Virus record (IMG/VR): IMGVR_UViG_3300046346_000048
Source of the DNA: a virus
DNA length: 37,754 nucleotides
Reading direction: 5' to 3' (one strand)
A program made the translations under genes and the position numbers. Of this stretch, positions 2,572 through 35,518 are shown one piece after another (within the stretch, counting starts at the first letter, position 1; each line of letters begins with the position of its first letter). The notes beneath the pieces are model-generated. The model was not told where the DNA came from. It did not search any database and saw only the letters and a program-made list of their open reading frames with translations.

Positions 2572-3627
2572 TCACCACCCAGCATTTGCGCCCCCTTGTG
2601 ATCCAAAACCCATACCACCATATAAAGGGTCCGATCTCGTGCTTGAGATAGTGTCAGGGATACCTGCATCTCTATTCTGGCTTGCTTGTTCTATTCTTGT
2701 TTTTAGGTATAAGATCTCTGCATCTAATTTAGATGTGTCGGTACCTTCCTCTTTGTCTAAAGCATACTTAGCAGCACGGACTATGGGATAACGTAACCAT
2801 CCTGAATATCCAAGCGTCGTAAGATCAATATCCTGAAGAAGAGAAGGAAGTTTAGGCGAATACCACATGCGAATCTGTTGATTGCCTGCTGGTGTAGGTA
2901 TGATATTTACGAAGTTTCCCATGAGACGATATCTCATGTTGTAAACTCCGTAAATTGTACTCGTAGAATTTGGATATACGTACTTATTGCGTTCTATGAA
3001 GTCGAACTTAAGAAGAGTGACCCACGCATTATTCGAAGTATTGATCCCAAGATCCATACCCGCAAGTTTGTAAAACGCATGAGAAGGCGAACCCGAAGAG
3101 TTGGGATATGTTCCACCAATATAATTGGTAACCCCATCTGGTACAGGATAATTCGCAGTCGTACCATTTGTATTGATAAAGACAAATTGTGACGCAAACA
3201 GATCTTCATAAGCAGTGATCAATATGTCATAAAGTTCGTACATTGCTAGACGAATGAATGCATTCCATTCACTCGTTACCACGAACTGAGAATTTACGCG
3301 ATCTGCCGTTTGCTGAGCTCTTAATCGTAATTCGTAAAGAGACATCTCTGATGGAGGAGCCGCAACCATCTGGGTCGTGGAAGAGGCTGTAGAACTTCCA
3401 GATCCATTGGTTGCGACTATGTAATAATAGTACATCACTCCGATGCCAGGCAAAGAATCAAGATATGAATTTACAAGACCAAGCGTGGCTAAAATGGTGA
3501 AATTAACACCATCCGTTGATCTGTAAACTACGTATCCCGTAGCACCCAAAGATCCGTACCATGATACTAAGATATTGCCATCAGATTGCTCCGCTGTTGG
3601 ATTCTGAGGCTGGTATGGTACTGCCAT
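2572..3627 (-). CDS. Virion structural protein with an N-terminal fibronectin type III-like domain (possible adaptor or tail component)
   Basis: 351-aa ORF. The N-terminus NILVSWYGSLGATGYVVYRSTDGVNFTILATL...YYYYIVATNGSGSS fits the FN3 pattern (lsW...a.gY.vyRs.dg..f......Y.Y.V.A.n..G.S). It lies between the capsid and fibre genes. Confidence 0.55.
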   Translation of the reverse strand: MAVPYQPQNPTAEQSDGNILVSWYGSLGATGYVVYRSTDGVNFTILATLGLVNSYLDSLPGIGVMYYYYIVATNGSGSSTASSTTQMVAAPPSEMSLYELRLRAQQTADRVNSQFVVTSEWNAFIRLAMYELYDILITAYEDLFASQFVFINTNGTTANYPVPDGVTNYIGGTYPNSSGSPSHAFYKLAGMDLGINTSNNAWVTLLKFDFIERNKYVYPNSTSTIYGVYNMRYRLMGNFVNIIPTPAGNQQIRMWYSPKLPSLLQDIDLTTLGYSGWLRYPIVRAAKYALDKEEGTDTSKLDAEILYLKTRIEQASQNRDAGIPDTISSTRSDPLYGGMGFGSQGGANAGW

Positions 3628-3639
3628 AAATCATCCTCA

Positions 3640-4632
3640 TCAAATCCCGTCAATTGTTACTGAACTGCCATCATATCTAAAGTTAAGACAGATCACGGAA
3701 CCTGTTGCGGGTGCGGTTACACCTAGAGCCAAGGTTCCTGTCAATGAAGCTGCGGACCCCGTAAAAGTGGGTGCAGATACTTCCCCTGCAGGAGTGCCCG
3801 CACTCGCTGCAACAACACCCCCAGCTGTTGCTGAGTTCGCACCTAAATAGGTAGCGTCTGTTGCTTCTTGTTTACCAAGCAAAGGGCCTGCATAGTTTGC
3901 GATATCATTTGTCGTAGATCCTGCTTGCCCTCCGATAACTGTAAAGTTATGGGTATGCGTACCAAGTGCAGAGCCAGAAAATGTCGGAGCAGATATAGTA
4001 CCTGCAGGAGTGTAAGCACCTGCTGTAAATATACCTCCCATGAATTGTAAAAGAAGCCATGCTCCACCATTGGATGCAATGTTTGAATTATTACTTGATA
4101 AGGTTGGATTTCCAACCACTTCAACTCCAAGAATCCCTGATGTTGTAGGAAGCTCAACTCTTGAAGTTGATGTGTTAGCACCAGCACCAACTGCTGTGGC
4201 AATAAAGGACACTCCCACCGCAGGTGTTACACCTTGTGGAAGTCCTATGGCTTGCCATTGAGCCAATGTAGAATTCCCCACAATCGTGATTACATAAGCT
4301 TGACCTGCAGTTAAAGCAGAGTTATCAATCTTAGTTGAAGTTGCGGTAGGGACTTGTGCTTGTACAAATCCGTTTAAATAATAATTAAAATTGTTTTGAA
4401 ATTGAATAAGAGCAAATCCGGCAGCAGGATTAGGATTTGTATATCCATCATTAGATCCTGGTGTTGTAGATGTGTGCATGAATACGTTACGTACATACCC
4501 ATTGCTTTTAAGCGATGTAATACCAAGACTATTTGTCGGCGTTACGGTAAATTGTAATCCGATATCCATTGGTTTAGTGACGTTTGTATAAATTGATTTG
4601 CCGTTAAGGCCAAAACCGCGGGCTACTGACAT
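3640..4632 (-). CDS. Hypothetical structural protein (330 aa) with duplicated TPAG..SAPTF.GSA segments and a THTHNF motif
   Basis: First gene downstream of the capsid gene, preceded by conserved late motif A. The internal repeat is YTPAGTISAPTFSGSALGTHTHNF / GTPAGEVSAPTFTGSAASL. Confidence 0.5.
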   Translation of the reverse strand: MSVARGFGLNGKSIYTNVTKPMDIGLQFTVTPTNSLGITSLKSNGYVRNVFMHTSTTPGSNDGYTNPNPAAGFALIQFQNNFNYYLNGFVQAQVPTATSTKIDNSALTAGQAYVITIVGNSTLAQWQAIGLPQGVTPAVGVSFIATAVGAGANTSTSRVELPTTSGILGVEVVGNPTLSSNNSNIASNGGAWLLLQFMGGIFTAGAYTPAGTISAPTFSGSALGTHTHNFTVIGGQAGSTTNDIANYAGPLLGKQEATDATYLGANSATAGGVVAASAGTPAGEVSAPTFTGSAASLTGTLALGVTAPATGSVICLNFRYDGSSVTIDGI

Positions 4633-4772: not shown

Positions 4773-5090
4773 CTACGCAGATAAGAGAACGTTCATGTTC
4801 CAACCTGGGGCACTGTTTATTACGTTCCCGTAATAAGCCAGCCTGACCTCAAGAGCGTCCGCATTTCCAACTCTTAAGCCTTCCAACCCCTCCATGCCGT
4901 AGGTCAGAATGTGCGGTGCTTTTCCAAGTGTACGCAGCTTCCATGTATCCATAGTCAAACACCATGCTGTTTGCGGTTGGCATGAACGATCCGCAACAAC
5001 TGGAATTTTTCCATAAGCACTGTGGAAATGAATAGCTTCGAAAGCTACTTCAACTTCATCATGCTCAAGCATGACATATTGAACTTTTGC
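4773..5090 (-). CDS. Major capsid protein, exon 3 (105 codons plus stop)
   Basis: The frame of the 99-aa ORF (4773-5072) is open upstream to 5123. Intron 2 ends in G at 5091, and exon 3 then reads AKVQYVMLEHDEVEVAFEAIHFHSAYGKIPVVADRS... This is a typical capsid C-terminal pattern (G.iPVv.s) and is in frame with exon 2. Confidence 0.75.
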   Translation of the reverse strand, partial: AKVQYVMLEHDEVEVAFEAIHFHSAYGKIPVVADRSCQPQTAWCLTMDTWKLRTLGKAPHILTYGMEGLEGLRVGNADALEVRLAYYGNVINSAPGWNMNVLLSA

Positions 5091-5291
5091 CGTTTTGTTA
5101 CTCCACCTTTCGGTGTGGCCTACTCACCTCTTCGGGCTTCGGCTCTCGGATTTTATTTATTGTCCGAGTTCAGACTATCGCATCCCTTTCGGGTCTTCTC
5201 ACTTAGTCGTTCACGCTGCTTTCGCTTGCGCCCTGTCAGCCTGTCGGCCTTCCAAGTCAATCAGAGAAGATTTAGACTGGGCACAAAGTTT
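5091..5291 (-). ncRNA. Group I-like self-splicing intron 2 in the capsid gene (201 nt, no ORF)
   Basis: Paralogue of 6093-6306. The 5' exon ACUGGGU pairs with intron GCCCAGU (5276-5282), with a U:G wobble at the junction. The intron ends in G. Intron AACUUU pairs with 3' exon AAAGUU (P10). There are several GNRA-capped hairpins. Removing the intron joins ...STLVNELG to AKVQYVML... in frame. Confidence 0.8.
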
Positions 5292-6092
5292 ACCCAGTTC
5301 GTTCACAAGAGTTGAGTAACTTAGAAAGTCGATCACGATAAGATCGCAGTCTGCACCCTCTCGGTTTGCAAATGCCAAGGCATTCGTTAGACCTTCGGAG
5401 ATACTTTGAGATGAAGCATTATAGCGAAGCCCTGCTAAACGAGTAGGATCTGCACTACGATTTACTCCCCAGAAATTGTCTGTAGTTGGAGGATCTACAG
5501 AAGGAACCCATGCAGCCAAACCTGAAAGGCCGAGCATACCAGCAATAGTAGAGCTTCCACCAATACCGATATCACCCAAAACTTGTAGGTAGTCACTAGC
5601 AACCCATGATGATTGTGGGGCACCTTGTACAACCGTACCAGAGATTGCACCCGTACCTCGATTTACTGAAGTGATTTGAATTGCATCAATAGTACCTGGT
5701 GTATTTTGTAATGCTGCACCACCATCTGTTGTAGATGCTTGCATTGTCATGCCTACCTCAAACTGCACTACAGATTGAGGATTAAGCAATGTAAAGCTAA
5801 GCGTAGGCGCAACATACGTAACACCTGCTGCTGAGATTTGCCCACGTGATGCAGTCCCACCGTAGAACAACTCGAATGCCATGTTGTTACTAAGGTTGCG
5901 GAAGCCGTTGTCTAGTGTACGAGATGCTTCATCAACAAATGCACCTGCATTACTTTTGGTTTGTTCCATAAGTAAATTGGTAATTGTTATGAGCTGGTAA
6001 TCCTGAATCGCATACACAAAGTAACTTACAACATCACTTGCTGTTTGCTGATTCTGAGCATTCGCAAATGTGTGACTTCGACCTTGTGGATT
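5292..6092 (-). CDS. Major capsid protein, exon 2 (267 codons)
   Basis: This is the core of the 294-aa ORF 5211-6095. The apparent ATG at 6095-6093 is the last 3 nt of intron 1. The apparent C-terminal tail KLCAQSKSSLIDLEGRQADRAQAKAA is a translation of intron 2. The gene follows portal and scaffold genes. Confidence 0.75.
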
Positions 6093-6306
6093 CATTTTGT
6101 TACTCCACCTTTCGGTGTGACCTACTCACCTCTTCGGGCTTCGGCTCTACCACTTCTTTTGTTATATGGTAGTTCAGACTGTCGCATACTCTTTCGAGCC
6201 CCTCTCACTCAGTCGTTCACCGTGCTTTTGCTTCGGCCCTGTCACCTGCTTCCAGGCTTCCAAGTCAATCAGAGAAGGTTTTAATACGGCAATTCCATAA
6301 GGTTTA
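6093..6306 (-). ncRNA. Group I-like self-splicing intron 1 in the capsid gene (214 nt, no ORF)
   Basis: The 5' exon UACGGU pairs with intron GCCGUA (6285-6290), with a U:G wobble at the junction. The intron ends ...AACAAAAUG, so the terminal nucleotide is G. Intron UGGAAUU pairs with 3' exon AAUCCA (P10, with one bulge). Removing the intron joins ...KYIPVPLEYG to NPQGRSHTFANAQ... in frame. Confidence 0.8.
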
Positions 6307-6336
6307 ACCGTACTCTAATGGGACGGGAATATACTT
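6307..6336 (-). CDS. Major capsid protein, exon 1b (KYIPVPLEYG)
   Basis: A short open stretch with no start codon, in the +2 frame relative to exon 1a. It ends exactly at the P1-defined 5' splice site of intron 1. Confidence 0.6.
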
Positions 6337-6377
6337 CCCTGCACAAAATCACATTAGATGATGGGTCTGCTATTTAA
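6337..6377 (-). other. Non-translatable gap inside capsid exon 1 (candidate ribosomal bypass gap or mini-intervening sequence)
   Basis: The exon 1a frame stops at TAA 6356-6354. The exon 1b frame is closed by TAG 6372-6370 and TGA 6351-6349. A 7-bp hairpin, GAUGGGU (6383-6377) with ACCCAUC (6366-6360), contains Gly codon GGG 6380-6378. An identical GGG lies at 6339-6337. Confidence 0.5.
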
Positions 6378-6527
6378 CCCATCTGGACTCTCGTTTTTTG
6401 GAATCATTGCTAGCAACGGATTCTTGTTGTAGACAATGTTCTTCATGTAGTCTTTGTCATCCACATACAATTCTTTTAGAGCAGCAAGCTGATTGCTGCT
6501 ATTAGCATATTGCGGACTGATAGTCAT
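6378..6527 (-). CDS. Major capsid protein, exon 1a (50 codons, MTISPQYANSSNQLAALKELYVDDKDYMKNIVYNKNPLLAMIPKNESPDG)
   Basis: The ATG at 6527-6525 lies 5 nt after the scaffold gene stop. The full in-frame ORF is 59 aa, so it falls below the track cutoff. The sequence resembles capsid N-termini (..L.ELY......v.....Pl.a.i.k), judged from memory. Confidence 0.6.
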
Positions 6528-7392: not shown

Positions 7393-9315
7393 TTATGCTG
7401 CTTGTGCGTTCGTATTAGGTACTAATGGAGAAGTGGGAGCAGGCATTGGGGATGCCGTTGGTGTAGGTGCAGGTAAGGTAGGTTGTATGGGTTGCGAAGC
7501 TTGAATAAGCGTTTGTACTTGAATGAAAAATGTCTCAAGCATCTCGTCTTTTTTCTGATCCAGTTTTGCCGATCGATATAAATTGATGTATTTGACTACT
7601 AAATCCGTTGCAAGTTGCAGATCCATGAATGCGTCGGGAGGTGTATATTTGCCGTCTTCCACAATTTCATCAAGAATTTGAAAAATCCTTTCTTCAGATG
7701 CATTATCGAGTTTCTCATTCTCATCCAAATCAGGAAAGCGCATCAATCGACGACCTTCCTTCAGCGTCAACATGCCTGCCTGCACTTGCTCTGTTACAGT
7801 AGCGATGCGACCTGCAGGTGTTCTTGGAAGAGAAGACTCTGTAAAACATTGAATAATGAAAGGGTCTTCAAGAAAACTCATCTGAGGAAGATTGATTTCT
7901 CTCGTTCCGTCTTTGTTGGGATAAACTGTTTGGTAAGATCCAGTTTCTTTTGCGATATCCATCGCTGTATCTGTTATAAGATAGGATAAATCTACGTAGA
8001 TACGCTCAAATTTCTTACCTGTTTCAGAAAATCTATCGGAATTGATATCATCTGCACTACGTATTGCTTCCCCACTGTCTAAGCCTTGAGGCTTCTGACC
8101 TGTGGCTTGCATATTAGACACACCTTCTTGTCTAAACCCATATTCGATGAGTCTATCTCGTTCTTCATACAGTTCAGGAGCATTGCAAGGCGCTATTTCA
8201 TAACTAGGTTTGACACCTGAATAAGTGATAAGCACACCGATTTCATTATTGTTATGAGCCTTAACAACTTTGGAACCTTGTTCTATAAATACTCTAGGAA
8301 CACCCACAAGAGAGATAGCCCTAGTAATAGTATACATGATCCTATTGATGCTAAGCTGTGTCCCAAAGAGACGTGTAGCAATACCTTGGCCCCAAAAGCC
8401 AAGATAAGGATCAGAATAATTGAAGAACACAAAAGGAAACTTAGGTTTATTCCATTCTTCATCGAAGATCACACCATTTACTGTTGCAATTGTATGACGT
8501 CCTGCTATATATCCTGGAGCTTCTGGGTCATCACCACTTGGAAGCTTCCACCCTTCGACGACGAGAACTTGATCAGCAGTTGTTTGTCCAGAATCCGGCG
8601 AGTTGTCTGGGTAGGATTTAGGTGTATTTGCTATGATTCGTTTCGCTTTATTATTATTAGCCATGAGCTTATCTCTATCGACAAGCTTCAATTGTATGAG
8701 CTGTTGAGGGTCACCATTCAGTGAATCATTATCATCAACATAAAGATCAGTTACCATAACTCGATCAATTGCTACTTTGTTATCATGACCAGCATAAACT
8801 TTAAGAGCACCGCACCCCATAGTGAGACCGTCTCTTAAGATCTTCTTAACTTTTTCGTACGCATGCGTTTGATAGAGCTCACCGAGAATAAATCTATTGA
8901 GCTCCTGTGCAAGTAACCGTTTTTTATAATCTGCACCATCTGTTAAGAACTTTGGCTCAGGCTCGTTTTGAGTGATCCTTGAGATGAGAGTGTCGACGCA
9001 GGATTGTATGAGATTGAATGTTGGTCTATCATCAGGCAACGTTTTCGTGCGATCCATTTTTGAAACATTGGAACCTGCATACGAATACACCGAGAGACCA
9101 CAGTAAAGCCTGATGGAAACTGCCAATTGTCTAAGGCGATAAGTTTGATTCTTTTTAAGGTAAGAAGCGGTACTGCATAACTGGTTTGCGAGGCTAGTGT
9201 CATCTTCTGCTTTCCACCATTCTGCTAATTTAAGATCACCATTCGTACCGTCTTGATTCATACGAGTACGCATCTTAATAGTCTCTGGACCTTTTTTCGC
9301 AGGTGTTATTTTCAT
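7393..9315 (-). CDS. Portal protein
   Basis: The 640-aa ORF lies upstream of the scaffold and capsid genes and downstream of the terminase region. The call rests on size and synteny, with no motif confirmation. Confidence 0.65.
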   Translation of the reverse strand: MKITPAKKGPETIKMRTRMNQDGTNGDLKLAEWWKAEDDTSLANQLCSTASYLKKNQTYRLRQLAVSIRLYCGLSVYSYAGSNVSKMDRTKTLPDDRPTFNLIQSCVDTLISRITQNEPEPKFLTDGADYKKRLLAQELNRFILGELYQTHAYEKVKKILRDGLTMGCGALKVYAGHDNKVAIDRVMVTDLYVDDNDSLNGDPQQLIQLKLVDRDKLMANNNKAKRIIANTPKSYPDNSPDSGQTTADQVLVVEGWKLPSGDDPEAPGYIAGRHTIATVNGVIFDEEWNKPKFPFVFFNYSDPYLGFWGQGIATRLFGTQLSINRIMYTITRAISLVGVPRVFIEQGSKVVKAHNNNEIGVLITYSGVKPSYEIAPCNAPELYEERDRLIEYGFRQEGVSNMQATGQKPQGLDSGEAIRSADDINSDRFSETGKKFERIYVDLSYLITDTAMDIAKETGSYQTVYPNKDGTREINLPQMSFLEDPFIIQCFTESSLPRTPAGRIATVTEQVQAGMLTLKEGRRLMRFPDLDENEKLDNASEERIFQILDEIVEDGKYTPPDAFMDLQLATDLVVKYINLYRSAKLDQKKDEMLETFFIQVQTLIQASQPIQPTLPAPTPTASPMPAPTSPLVPNTNAQAA

Positions 9316-16817: not shown

Positions 16818-17117
16818 ATGAAAATTACATCTGTACAAGAAATACAAAAAGCAACCGAACTTCGAAAGATCATGGATCTGAGGCTTTTTGCAGAAAAGAA
16901 AGAAACGGAACTGAAAAAACATTTCAAGGATTTAATGGGTAAGGAGGAGATTCTTAACATAGGAGATAAATTCATAGTTTTTCTTGAACCTAGAGAACGC
17001 ACAGGACTTGATGCGAATAGATTAAGAATGGCTCTTGGTGAGAGAATTCATGAATTTGAAACAATAAGCTTTTACAAAATTTTCAATTTGAAAGAAACAA
17101 AGGAGAATAAAAAATGA
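16818..17117 (+). CDS. Hypothetical early protein (99 aa)
   Basis: A strong ribosome-binding site, AAAGGAGGAAACAAAATG, and it is the first gene of a plus-strand block. Confidence 0.55.
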   Translation: MKITSVQEIQKATELRKIMDLRLFAEKKETELKKHFKDLMGKEEILNIGDKFIVFLEPRERTGLDANRLRMALGERIHEFETISFYKIFNLKETKENKK

Positions 17118-33501: not shown

Positions 33502-35177
33502 GCTCGTTTCCTTTTTGCTAGAACTTGAGCGACGAATTGCGCAGATGCATTTATAGGATCTTTTCCTTGCGTCACAGATCTAGGAATCACAATCTCATGC
33601 TCAGATAACAATGCGGGGATCTTGTCATTTGCGTAACTATTGCCTGACTTTGTGGCCTTTTGTTTTTGAGATTCTGCTTTTACATTCCCTCCTGCGGTAT
33701 AATCTTTCTTTGCCATACCCCCCTTAGCAGCAGCTAAAGCACTTAAGGCAGCCGCCTCAGGCATAATATCAATCGCACCTGTAGCAGCAGCAGGCGCTTC
33801 AAAAGATGTTGCACCTGCGCCCATTCCTGCTGATGCAGGAGTTGTAGGAGTCATCCAATTTTGAATGGCTTGCGAAAGAGGTTTTCCAAAACTTGATATT
33901 CCCTGCTGCAATGCTTGAGCCCCTAGATTATTTCCAGCCATATTAAAATTATTTTGAGGATTCCCATTCTTATTCTGGTTTCCTTGTAAGGCACCTTTAA
34001 GAAATTTTCCAAACGAACTCGACGGCCCAGGGATATTTTGAGTACTGTTATCATTATTTATTTGAGATGCTTGACCCGCTATACCCTGAGCATTATCTGG
34101 TATAAAATCTCCACTAGCATCATATGCCCCCGTTCCTGAATCCCCTCCATTATCAAAATGCTTAGGTTTTTCTACATCTCCACCTTCAGCATGGATAAGA
34201 GCTCCTAATCCTGTACCGACAGCGTTTGCTGCGCCTCCTACTACACCTTGTTGTCCTTGCATATTCGTTTGAGCAAGTCCTGCGTTCGATGCGTTAATAT
34301 TGCCTTGCATTGAAACATTTGCATTATTTTGAGCAGCAAGAGCCTCTTGTTGTATCTGCTGTTCTGATTGTAGAGCTTGTGTATTTTGCGTAGTAGCCCC
34401 GATTTGTTGACCTGCCATCGTGTTGGCTTGTCCTGCAAGAGCAGCTTGTTGTGCTTGCTGTTGCCCTGTAATCCCCGCTGCTGCTGCTTGCTGCGCGCCG
34501 ATCCCAGCTTGTTGTTGACCGATTTGTTGACCAGCAGTATTTGCAACGCTCTGTTGCGCAGCACCTATCCCCGCTAATGCGTTCAAACTTTGATTCGCCT
34601 GCATCGAAGCGCCTTGACCCACTGCCTGTTGCTGTGTGGCAGCACCTTGCTGGGCAGCTTGCCTTGCAAGAAGCCCTACATTGGAACTTGCCCCACGTTG
34701 ACCTGCCATAAGAGCAGCTTGATTTGCAACGTTTTCGCCTGTCTGTTGATTAAGCATAGCCATTGCAGGATTCGGGCCTGTACCATTTGCGATGCCTTGA
34801 TATTGCTGAGCAAGAGCTTGCTGCGCCTGTAAAGCAGCTTGTTGATTTTGTACTCCTCCCACACTACCAAATTGTTGATTTAATCCCTGCTGCTGCTGTA
34901 AGGCTTGCCCTTGTGCATTTACTGCACCAAGATTTCCTTGTTGATTAGCAAGAGCCTGTTGTTGATTTAAAACAGAGGATTGATTTTGAATGCCCTGTTG
35001 AGATTGCAACGCATTAAGAAGCCCTTGCTGACTTGATAAGCCTCGATTTGCATTGTATTGAGATATCCCAATATCTGATTCATTTGTTCCAGGTGTAATA
35101 ACCGCACTACCAGGAGCTTTAAAGCCCGATCCGCTAGCTCCGCCTGCGGTTCCTATAAGTCCCCCAATAGCACCCAT
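33498..35177 (-). CDS. Gln/Ala/Gly-rich protein (559 aa), internal virion or ejection protein candidate
   Basis: About 300 aa of Q/A/G/N low-complexity sequence. Motifs are HAEGGDVEKPKHFDNGGDSG and YTAGGNVKAE. The C-terminus is LLSEHEIVIPRSV. Confidence 0.45.
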   Translation of the reverse strand: MGAIGGLIGTAGGASGSGFKAPGSAVITPGTNESDIGISQYNANRGLSSQQGLLNALQSQQGIQNQSSVLNQQQALANQQGNLGAVNAQGQALQQQQGLNQQFGSVGGVQNQQAALQAQQALAQQYQGIANGTGPNPAMAMLNQQTGENVANQAALMAGQRGASSNVGLLARQAAQQGAATQQQAVGQGASMQANQSLNALAGIGAAQQSVANTAGQQIGQQQAGIGAQQAAAAGITGQQQAQQAALAGQANTMAGQQIGATTQNTQALQSEQQIQQEALAAQNNANVSMQGNINASNAGLAQTNMQGQQGVVGGAANAVGTGLGALIHAEGGDVEKPKHFDNGGDSGTGAYDASGDFIPDNAQGIAGQASQINNDNSTQNIPGPSSSFGKFLKGALQGNQNKNGNPQNNFNMAGNNLGAQALQQGISSFGKPLSQAIQNWMTPTTPASAGMGAGATSFEAPAAATGAIDIMPEAAALSALAAAKGGMAKKDYTAGGNVKAESQKQKATKSGNSYANDKIPALLSEHEIVIPRSVTQGKDPINASAQFVAQVLAKRKRA

Positions 35178-35179
35178 AT

Positions 35180-35518
35180 TTAAATCCCTTTTCGAAAATA
35201 TATTATGTTATCTGTGCTCTTAAAAACTTCCATACCGTAAGAAATAAGAACCAAAATACTGTCATTAGATCCGCGACAAGAGGGATTCACCGTTCCTATA
35301 ATTTCATTACATCCCACTTGTCTTGCAATTTCGCAAACCTTATCTCCGAGCTCTTTAGCGACGCCGTGATTTCTGACTGCAGGCACAACATAGATATCAA
35401 TAATATACATCTGGTTTTTATTGAGTCTTCTATAGGTAACAAAACCAGTGTCTGTTTCTATAATACAATCATCTGTTCTTTCATCGAGATATCTTGCATA
35501 TAAAGACGTCATAATCAC
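35180..35518 (-). CDS. Minimal GNAT-family N-acetyltransferase (112 aa)
   Basis: IIDIYVVPAVRNHGVAKELGDKVCEIARQVGCNEIIGTVNP fits GNAT motif A and the beta4-alpha3 region. Confidence 0.6.
   Translation of the reverse strand: MIMTSLYARYLDERTDDCIIETDTGFVTYRRLNKNQMYIIDIYVVPAVRNHGVAKELGDKVCEIARQVGCNEIIGTVNPSCRGSNDSILVLISYGMEVFKSTDNIIYFRKGI

Follow-up and report, generated by a model that had tools for sequence, protein, structure and literature searches.

Self-splicing group I introns are familiar residents of phage genomes, as exemplified by T4 td and Twort orf142, and compact forms of the class exist, for example the ~205-nt intron of the Azoarcus tRNA-Ile gene. In larger group I introns, P2 and P2.1 connect P1 to the core, and Doudna and Szostak reportedly found in 1989 that P1 can be given to a group I core as a separate duplex. 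Reduced, non-autonomous introns are represented by the group III introns of Euglena and by domain-deficient group II introns that depend on factors acting in trans. Short gaps in coding regions are also known from T4 gene 60 and the mitochondrial byp elements, where the ribosome bypasses a segment characterized by a hairpin at its 5' edge, by stop codons and by flanking Gly codons. Two further precedents concern the sharing of splice sites between group I introns. Where the exon between tandem introns measures 23 nt (Twort orf142) or 34 nt (Coxiella 23S rRNA), each intron makes use of the splice sites of the other, and Tetrahymena introns engineered in tandem are able to combine into one ribozyme (PMC10136302). 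An engineered Tetrahymena 'spliceozyme', finally, removes introns in trans (Amini, Olson & Muller 2014, PMC4094466).

The locus described here lies in a 37,754-nt stretch of viral DNA, IMG/VR record IMGVR_UViG_3300046346_000048, which we refer to in its entirety as the window. Its capsid gene is interrupted by two full-length group I introns and, in addition, by an insert of 32 nt. We consider it probable, on balance, that this insert is a non-autonomous group I mini-intron which is excised by a full-length group I core, most likely that of intron 1 in cis.

The capsid gene is encoded on the minus strand, downstream of ORFs for a portal protein (9315-7393) and a scaffold-like protein (7384-6533). 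Its reading frame opens at ATG 6527, translates as ...IPKNESPDGLNSRPII with a tail reading ...PDGLNSRPII, and runs into TAA 6356-6354. The frame that encodes the continuation, GKYIPVPLEYG, is blocked by TAG 6372-6370 and TGA 6351-6349, and the third frame is blocked by TAA 6376-6374. Since all frames are closed by stops, a single frameshift cannot connect exon 1a and exon 1b. Single frameshifting and readthrough are ruled out on this ground and because inserts of relatives that are in frame (33 and 36 nt) hold UAA; likewise ruled out is a split capsid protein re-initiating at AUU 6330, the start codon being absent in relatives and the group I signature described below being left unexplained. 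The original prediction, made from the letters of the window, had located the stops of the first two of these frames, a pair of GGG codons (6380-6378 and 6339-6337) and a hairpin, GAUGGGU with ACCCAUC, all of which are found where it had placed them.

It is practically inconceivable that an assembly or sequencing artefact has added 32 nt to a continuous exon. The 57-aa ORF which enters the insert recurs on 10 contigs, to which at least 5 samples contribute (two JGI, three Logan runs). Five loci carrying this ORF were retrieved; all are 100% identical to the window and thus represent one genotype, and this 37.7-kb genotype emerged from the assemblies of at least 5 samples. The insert is identical in the independent JGI and Logan assemblies, and divergent homologous inserts occur in other phages and other samples. 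An assembly error, which had been raised along with the original prediction, is hence excluded, and the frame-breaking insert is genuine sequence, with one genotype represented. The 57-aa ORF is a singleton in clustering at 90%, the exact sequence of the mini-intron has 0 matches in IMG/VR, and a search of GTDB genomes returned only one false positive, in an unrelated gene, and no clue to the host.

What the capsid protein should look like at the insertion point can be read from its homologues, more than 3,000 of which were found with the conceptually joined protein. The best 120 of these are nearly all exactly 435 aa long, uninterrupted and 85-89% identical. The closest homologue in the protein collection is 89% identical, and the product of this strain itself was not among the matches; Pfam and PHROGs gave only a weak match of the spliced capsid protein to SU10_MCP. 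Uninterrupted homologues read ...NESPDGFAGKYIPVPLEYGNPQGR at the site, and the consensus around the insertion point is ...PKNESPDGFAGKYIPVPLEYGNPQGR... (motif PDGFAGKYIPVPLEYG). The window DNA reads cca gat ggg tt[aaatagcagacccatcatctaatgtgattttg]t gca ggg aag tat, where the brackets enclose the 32-nt insert. Deleting exactly these 32 nt (6375-6344) recovers GFAGKY within the consensus ...PDGFAGKYIPV..., and removal of the insert together with intron 1 (6306-6093) and intron 2 (5291-5091) yields a protein of 435 aa with the exact consensus motif. No other 32-nt deletion recovers both, and the differing flanking bases leave the boundaries no room to slide. The boundaries were set from the protein consensus alone, RNA features not being used, and place the junctions at U6376/A6375 and G6344/U6343. 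Of the ways in which the original prediction proposed to restore the protein, removal at the RNA level was essentially right; the segment concerned is 32 nt long (6375-6344), and neither 35 nt, which gave PDGSGKY, nor 41 nt.

The capsid gene would accordingly be assembled from the following parts, all on the minus strand: (i) exon 1a (6376-6527), which extends from M1 to the first two bases of F51, has U6376 as its last base and aligns with residues 1-50 of the 435-aa homologues; (ii) the core-less 32-nt mini-intron AAAUAGCAGACCCAUCAUCUAAUGUGAUUUUG (6344-6375), to which nine distinct inserts in relatives are homologous; (iii) a micro-exon 1b of 37 nt (6307-6343), which runs from the last base of F51 to G63 (..AGKYIPVPLEYG) and is supported by the consensus protein and by synonymous variation; (iv) exon 2 (5292-6092); and (v) exon 3 (4773-5090), with the stop codon at 4775-4773.

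Examination of the insert at these boundaries reveals the parts of a group I intron that define its splice sites. The end of the 5' exon, GAUGGGUU (6376-6383), forms the 5' strand of a predicted P1, and the internal guide, GACCCAUC (6360-6367), forms its 3' strand. The helix comprises 8 bp and is closed at the loop by a wobble between the splice-site base U6376 and G6367. The hairpin had been predicted with 7 bp and with a U-A in place of the U:G expected at the junction of a group I intron; the hairpin is present, its eighth pair is the U.G wobble, and the junction is a proper U.G once the helix is extended by this pair. Taken alone, the P1 hairpin has a folding energy of -12.2 kcal/mol (z = -6.5), and 0/200 shuffles were as good. 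Directly 5' of the guide G lies a P10 guide, GCA (6368-6370), which pairs with UGC (6343-6341) at the start of the 3' exon. In the window P10 thus has 3 bp and immediately adjoins P1 (5-8 bp in relatives), and contiguous P1 and P10 as observed here are encountered in 0.4% of shuffled inserts. The insert ends with G6344 in the omega-G position. Its tail, UCUAAUGUGA (6349-6358), provides the 5' strand of a helix with exon 1b, pairing at 9/10 positions of 6358-6349 with UCCCAUUAGA (6323-6314), which ends one base ahead of the P1 of intron 1; for the window alone this tail helix is not significant (p = 0.39). The minimum free energy (MFE) fold of 6392-6283 (-36.5 kcal/mol, z = -4.65) consists of three successive hairpins, namely the P1 of the mini-intron, the tail/exon-1b helix and the P1 of intron 1.

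Only 16 nt of the insert remain after P1, and these pair with the exon. A 32-nt insert has no room for the P3-P7 pseudoknot, P4-P6, P8 and the G-binding site in P7, and the minis compared share no nucleotides able to build a core, almost none being conserved. Neither an ORF nor an intron-borne endonuclease is present in the mini-intron, and the same is true of introns 1 and 2 of the window. As judged from its sequence, the mini-intron is thus an element with every substrate feature of a group I intron (P1, U.G, P10 and terminal G) and no core. Devoid of P3-P9 and of the G-binding site, the defining parts of the class, it cannot self-splice and is not a self-splicing group I intron.

Relatives of the insert were sought by a scan of IMG/VR for the intron core, by applying to IMG/VR and the JGI metagenomes a gapped exon pattern (GATGG and AARTAYATHCCNGTNCCNYTNGA, with 35-50 or 42-50 nt between them), and by direct inspection of one locus, L006. 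Nine further distinct mini-inserts (32, 32, 33, 33, 33, 33, 34, 36 and 47 nt) were found at three other points of the capsid gene. Site A, after GGGUU, is occupied in the window only (32 nt; guide GACCCAUC; P10 of 3 bp). Site A', after GAUGG[G/C]U, harbors the inserts of L018 (33 nt), L019 (36 nt) and L020 (34 nt), in which the guide is GCCCAUC or GGCCAUC, tracking GGG or GGC, and P10 has 5-8 bp; relative to these, both splice sites of the window are displaced by +1. At site B, after the GGU of Gly53, the inserts of L009 (32 nt), L007, L013 and L014 (33 nt each) and L021 (32 nt) exhibit the P10 AAGUAU/AUACUU (AAGUA/UACUU in L021), and their guides, GCCGGC or GCCCGC, track an Ala codon GCC or GCG; the guide of L021, GCCUGCAAA, has one U-U mismatch. 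Site C, after the CCU of Pro48, is represented by the 47-nt insert of L006 (guide GGGUCUCUC; P10 of 7 bp).

All ten distinct minis follow an exon base U, end in G, and upon removal recover the consensus. Their lengths span all three frame classes. Across the ten minis, which are not fully independent and correspond to about 6 distinct guide/exon combinations, P1 and P10 together form 8-16 contiguous bp (shuffle p < 1e-4 to 0.04), and in a cross-matrix each guide matches its own site group only. Changes in the exons are compensated in the guides: GGG->GGC goes along with GCCCAUC->GGCCAUC, and GCC->GCG with GCCGGC->GCCCGC. When the minis are removed in silico, nine genomes give an identical GFAGKYIPVPLEYG, and 15/15 variable nucleotide columns among the mini-carrying genomes are synonymous, which argues for a micro-exon that is translated, under purifying selection, in the frame which only splicing restores. 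The tail-exon helix (7-11 bp) is found in 10/10 minis and follows synonymous changes of the exon, as when GUC CCA->GUG CCU occurs alongside AGUGGG->AGAGGC; its p values, from 0.002 to 0.39, are weak for single minis but consistent over the set.

These relatives bear directly on the proposal, advanced in the original prediction by analogy with T4 gene 60, that ribosomes hop over the gap, either from GGG 6380-6378 to GGG 6339-6337 or from AUC 6359-6357 to AUU 6330-6328. Matched GGG codons do border the gap, the take-off codon sits in the 5' arm of a stable hairpin, and site-B relatives exhibit a Gly codon followed directly by UAA (GGU-UAA), reminiscent of GGA-UAG at the take-off site of T4 gene 60. 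In the window, GGG is followed by UUA, with the stop 7 codons on, the hairpin is accounted for by P1, and Gly50 and Gly53 of the regular protein account for the two GGG codons. However, the product of the GGG-GGG hop, PDG-KY, is devoid of the invariant F-A-G and measures 432 instead of 435 aa, and the hop from AUC to AUU costs even more residues. Nor are the relatives consistent with hopping: the codons of L019 are unmatched (GGC vs GGG), L013 and L014 offer no Gly codon in frame on which to land, and a hop in L007 and L009 would give +2 residues. The U.G wobble, the adjoining P10, the terminal G and the covariation with the insertion point would all be left unexplained. Programmed bypass is therefore very improbable in either version, and the insert is probably not a ribosome-hopping site.

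The same data can be held against the view that the insert is the dead relic of a third intron which lost its core, leaving the capsid gene broken, the phage defective or complemented, and the pairing residual. The resemblance of the insert to a group I intron cut down to P1-J1/3 and its 3' end, and the tail motif UCUAA of the insert, which recurs in intron 2, would fit such a history. Yet at least 5 samples contain this same 37.7-kb genotype, a phage could not do without its major capsid gene, and ten minis at four sites, with compensatory guides and with only synonymous change in the micro-exon, point to long-term selection on both guide and reading frame; a dead relic is thus quite unlikely. 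The original prediction had considered the gap a possible scar of a third intron copy, and its reading of the gap as derived from a group I intron survives; by the comparative evidence the minis are no one-off scar, and constitute a family of at least ten distinct inserts maintained under selection. A search of IMG/VR for a full-length ancestor by means of the 5' end of site-B minis yielded the known minis and unrelated random matches only.

A candidate catalyst lies in the same transcript. Intron 1 (6093-6306, minus strand) is a compact group I intron of 214 nt, with P1 UACGGU/GCCGUA, a P3-P7 pseudoknot (P7 GACUG/CAGUC), P4-P6, P8 and P9 supported by covariation, and a 3' end ..AAAAUG. Intron 2 (5091-5291, minus strand), with P1 CUGGGU/GCCCAG, is a sibling of 201 nt which has no mini-intron upstream. 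The two are about 82% identical, and both possess a U.G-closed P1, a P10 and a terminal G. An alignment of their cores with nine copies from related phages supports P3, P4, P5, P6, P8 and P9 as well as a P7 (GACU[A/G] with [U/C]AGUC) pseudoknotted with P3: 95.5% of the cells are paired, vs 82% for shuffles and 34-43% for slid controls, and 22 pairs of the core covary by double changes, with P7 as GACUA/UAGUC. Based on this covariation, introns 1 and 2 are bona fide group I introns. The Rfam group I model had no match, at gathering or at E <= 10, in the window and nine related loci, full introns included; since Rfam misses even the full-length introns, it is uninformative for this lineage.

Three further observations concern these compact introns. 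The ATG that opens a called 294-aa 'gene' (ORF 5211-6095) consists of the last three bases, AUG, of intron 1 (6093-6095), exon 2 starting at 6092. In Roseobacter phage CRP-118 (OR420741.1; our locus L126), a match to the compact family at 35056-35455 occupies an unannotated gap between gp44 and gp45, which are annotated as fragments of a 'ribonucleotide reductase' CDS; this match is probably an unannotated group I intron in a cultured phage and as such a possible experimental handle. In the GenBank phage MW202674.1, positions 16878-17006 exhibit 77% identity to the intron family beneath a CDS annotated as 'hypothetical protein'.

The pattern used to search for minis did not demand a neighbouring intron, and all ten distinct minis have a full-length intron 21-38 nt downstream, the mini being invariably 5' of the intron. 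In the window and in L007 this neighbour is a member of the compact family. In L009, L013, L014 and L018-L021 it comes from a second family; these introns share one 5' sequence, starting ..AAAUCGGGUAAAAACGGUGAACCC..., and are located at the exon-1b site (L009, L013, L018-L021) or one codon earlier (L014). The neighbouring insertions of L013 (from 4162), L019 and L020, all of the second family, are of similar size, 660-700 nt. An ORF of about 133 aa of the Endonuclease_7/His-Me finger type, likely a homing endonuclease by its sequence, resides in the neighbours of L009 (2511-3116) and L006 (about 8142-8750), the latter being an ORF-bearing intron at aa 55 with the same type of ORF as the second family. 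When exons were mapped in 109 related capsid loci, about 10 further positions proved to carry full introns (aa 33, 94-98, 103, 113-115, 259, 313, 341-346, 355 and 410-417), none of them with a mini. With restrictive patterns applied to IMG/VR, the search for an exon-1b-site intron without a mini returned 0 true cases, the four matches being uninterrupted genes recognized via CCTCAAGG. The co-occurrence of mini and intron could reflect co-inheritance instead of functional dependence.

Across the 109 loci the introns are concentrated at roughly a dozen points of the capsid gene, including aa 48-64, and copies of one family are found a few nucleotides apart with retargeted guides, a pattern which suggests frequent re-targeting or sliding of introns. 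Single genes can be heavily loaded: the capsid gene of L007 (5460-7610) contains one mini and four full-length introns, of which that at about 6000-6144 falls outside the compact family, and the first 64 capsid codons of L013 accommodate two full introns and one mini, with an additional ORF-bearing intron after Tyr33 (about 3327-4041; P1 GUCUAU/GUAGAC).

Removal of the mini at the RNA level is well supported by the comparisons above, from which we infer both splicing itself and the identity of the catalytic ribozyme. Two transesterifications would excise the mini and join ...GAU GGG UU to U GCA GGG AAG..., thereby encoding ...PDGFAGKYIPV...; the predicted junction in the spliced RNA is ...CCAGAUGGGUU^UGCAGGGAAG..., and the predicted capsid peptide SPDGFAGKYIPV / SPDGFAGKYIPVPLEYGNPQGR, where bypass predicts SPDGKYIPV. 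Because the mini has no core, we propose that catalysis comes from a full intron. Intron 1, 37 nt downstream, would supply P3-P9 in cis, two guides thus sharing one core; alternatively, the core may be that of intron 2, or of an excised intron that works in trans. Intron 1 is favoured because the P1 of the mini would be placed 5' of its core and connected to it by a pair of hairpins (that of the tail with exon 1b, and intron 1's own P1), in a manner reminiscent of P2 and P2.1 in larger group I introns, and because the guides are separate: each would hold its own exon pair by P1 and P10, and skipping of the micro-exon would be prevented. The tandem introns, the spliceozyme and the separately supplied P1 duplex mentioned at the outset lend plausibility to such an arrangement. 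A search for duplexes between the mini and introns 1 and 2 found nothing better than shuffles, so that docking would rest on tertiary contacts only. That splicing by the neighbouring core is obligatory, and that we are dealing with a natural 'two guides, one core' system of 32-47-nt minis which shed their ribozyme, is in our judgement an evenly balanced proposition.

That no pairing between mini and intron was detected would also be expected if the same junctions were processed by some other catalyst, such as a protein endonuclease working with an RtcB-type RNA ligase, or an unrecognised activity that the 32-nt RNA and the micro-exon exert autonomously, which we regard as a minor though not negligible possibility. 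The U at -1 paired to G, the P10 contiguous with P1 and the terminal G, however, constitute a signature specific to group I introns, and the minis share almost no nucleotides from which an active site could be formed. The MFE fold with its three hairpins is no bulge-helix-bulge either, since the junctions are located at the edge of a hairpin loop and in a large loop. Furthermore, the strict location of the minis 5' of, and adjacent to, full introns would be left unexplained.

Excision by a neighbouring group I core can now be compared with the systems introduced above. Like phage group I introns, the mini has a P1 with U.G, a contiguous P10, a last G and early in-frame stops, and interrupts a conserved structural gene; unlike them, it is devoid of the P3-P9 core and the G-binding site, and the compact full introns of the same family (201-214 nt) exceed it in length about sixfold. 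The capsid and tail introns of Cluster J mycobacteriophages measure at least 265 nt. With tandem group I introns it has in common an exon of 21-38 nt between two group I-type sequences and, on the present model, a core that uses the splice sites of its neighbour. There, however, each intron possesses a full ribozyme and cross-reaction yields a by-product from which the exon has been lost, whereas in the capsid gene the upstream element lacks a core, and splicing would always have to proceed by cross-reaction and keep the exon. As in the spliceozyme, a group I core would remove a foreign intron by P1- and P10-type recognition of both sites; the spliceozyme carries its guides on the ribozyme and acts in trans, while in the capsid gene the guide resides within the mini and the core would be a natural intron of the same transcript. 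T4 gene 60 and byp elements likewise feature an essential gene whose coding sequence is broken by some tens of nucleotides, a hairpin, stops and Gly on both sides, but the hop fails to give the expected product, matched codons are missing in relatives, and a group I signature is found instead. A conceptual parallel is seen in degenerate organellar introns, where a self-splicing lineage has likewise been reduced to splice-site parts with catalysis supplied elsewhere; those, however, derive from group II. In the literature searched, a review of bacterial group I introns included, core-less group I mini-introns are not reported.

The model is directly testable on a transcript of about 320 nt. A natural sequence of 32 nt that can be removed would define the minimal needs in cis, i.e., a P1 with U.G, a P10, a terminal G and a tethering helix, and could be useful for RNA engineering. 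For genome annotation, capsid genes of this kind would otherwise be called frameshifted genes, pseudogenes, or sites of bypass or recoding, and the compact introns next to them are invisible to Rfam. If confirmed, the mini-introns would imply that group I introns can decay to substrate-only elements which depend on the ribozyme of a neighbour, a dependence that as a rule comes up only in connection with group II introns and with how the spliceosome arose. The mini-intron would then be the first non-autonomous group I intron known from nature, where it would parallel the engineered spliceozyme, and a living lineage of phages would show the step from self-splicing to a shared catalyst that acts on other introns.
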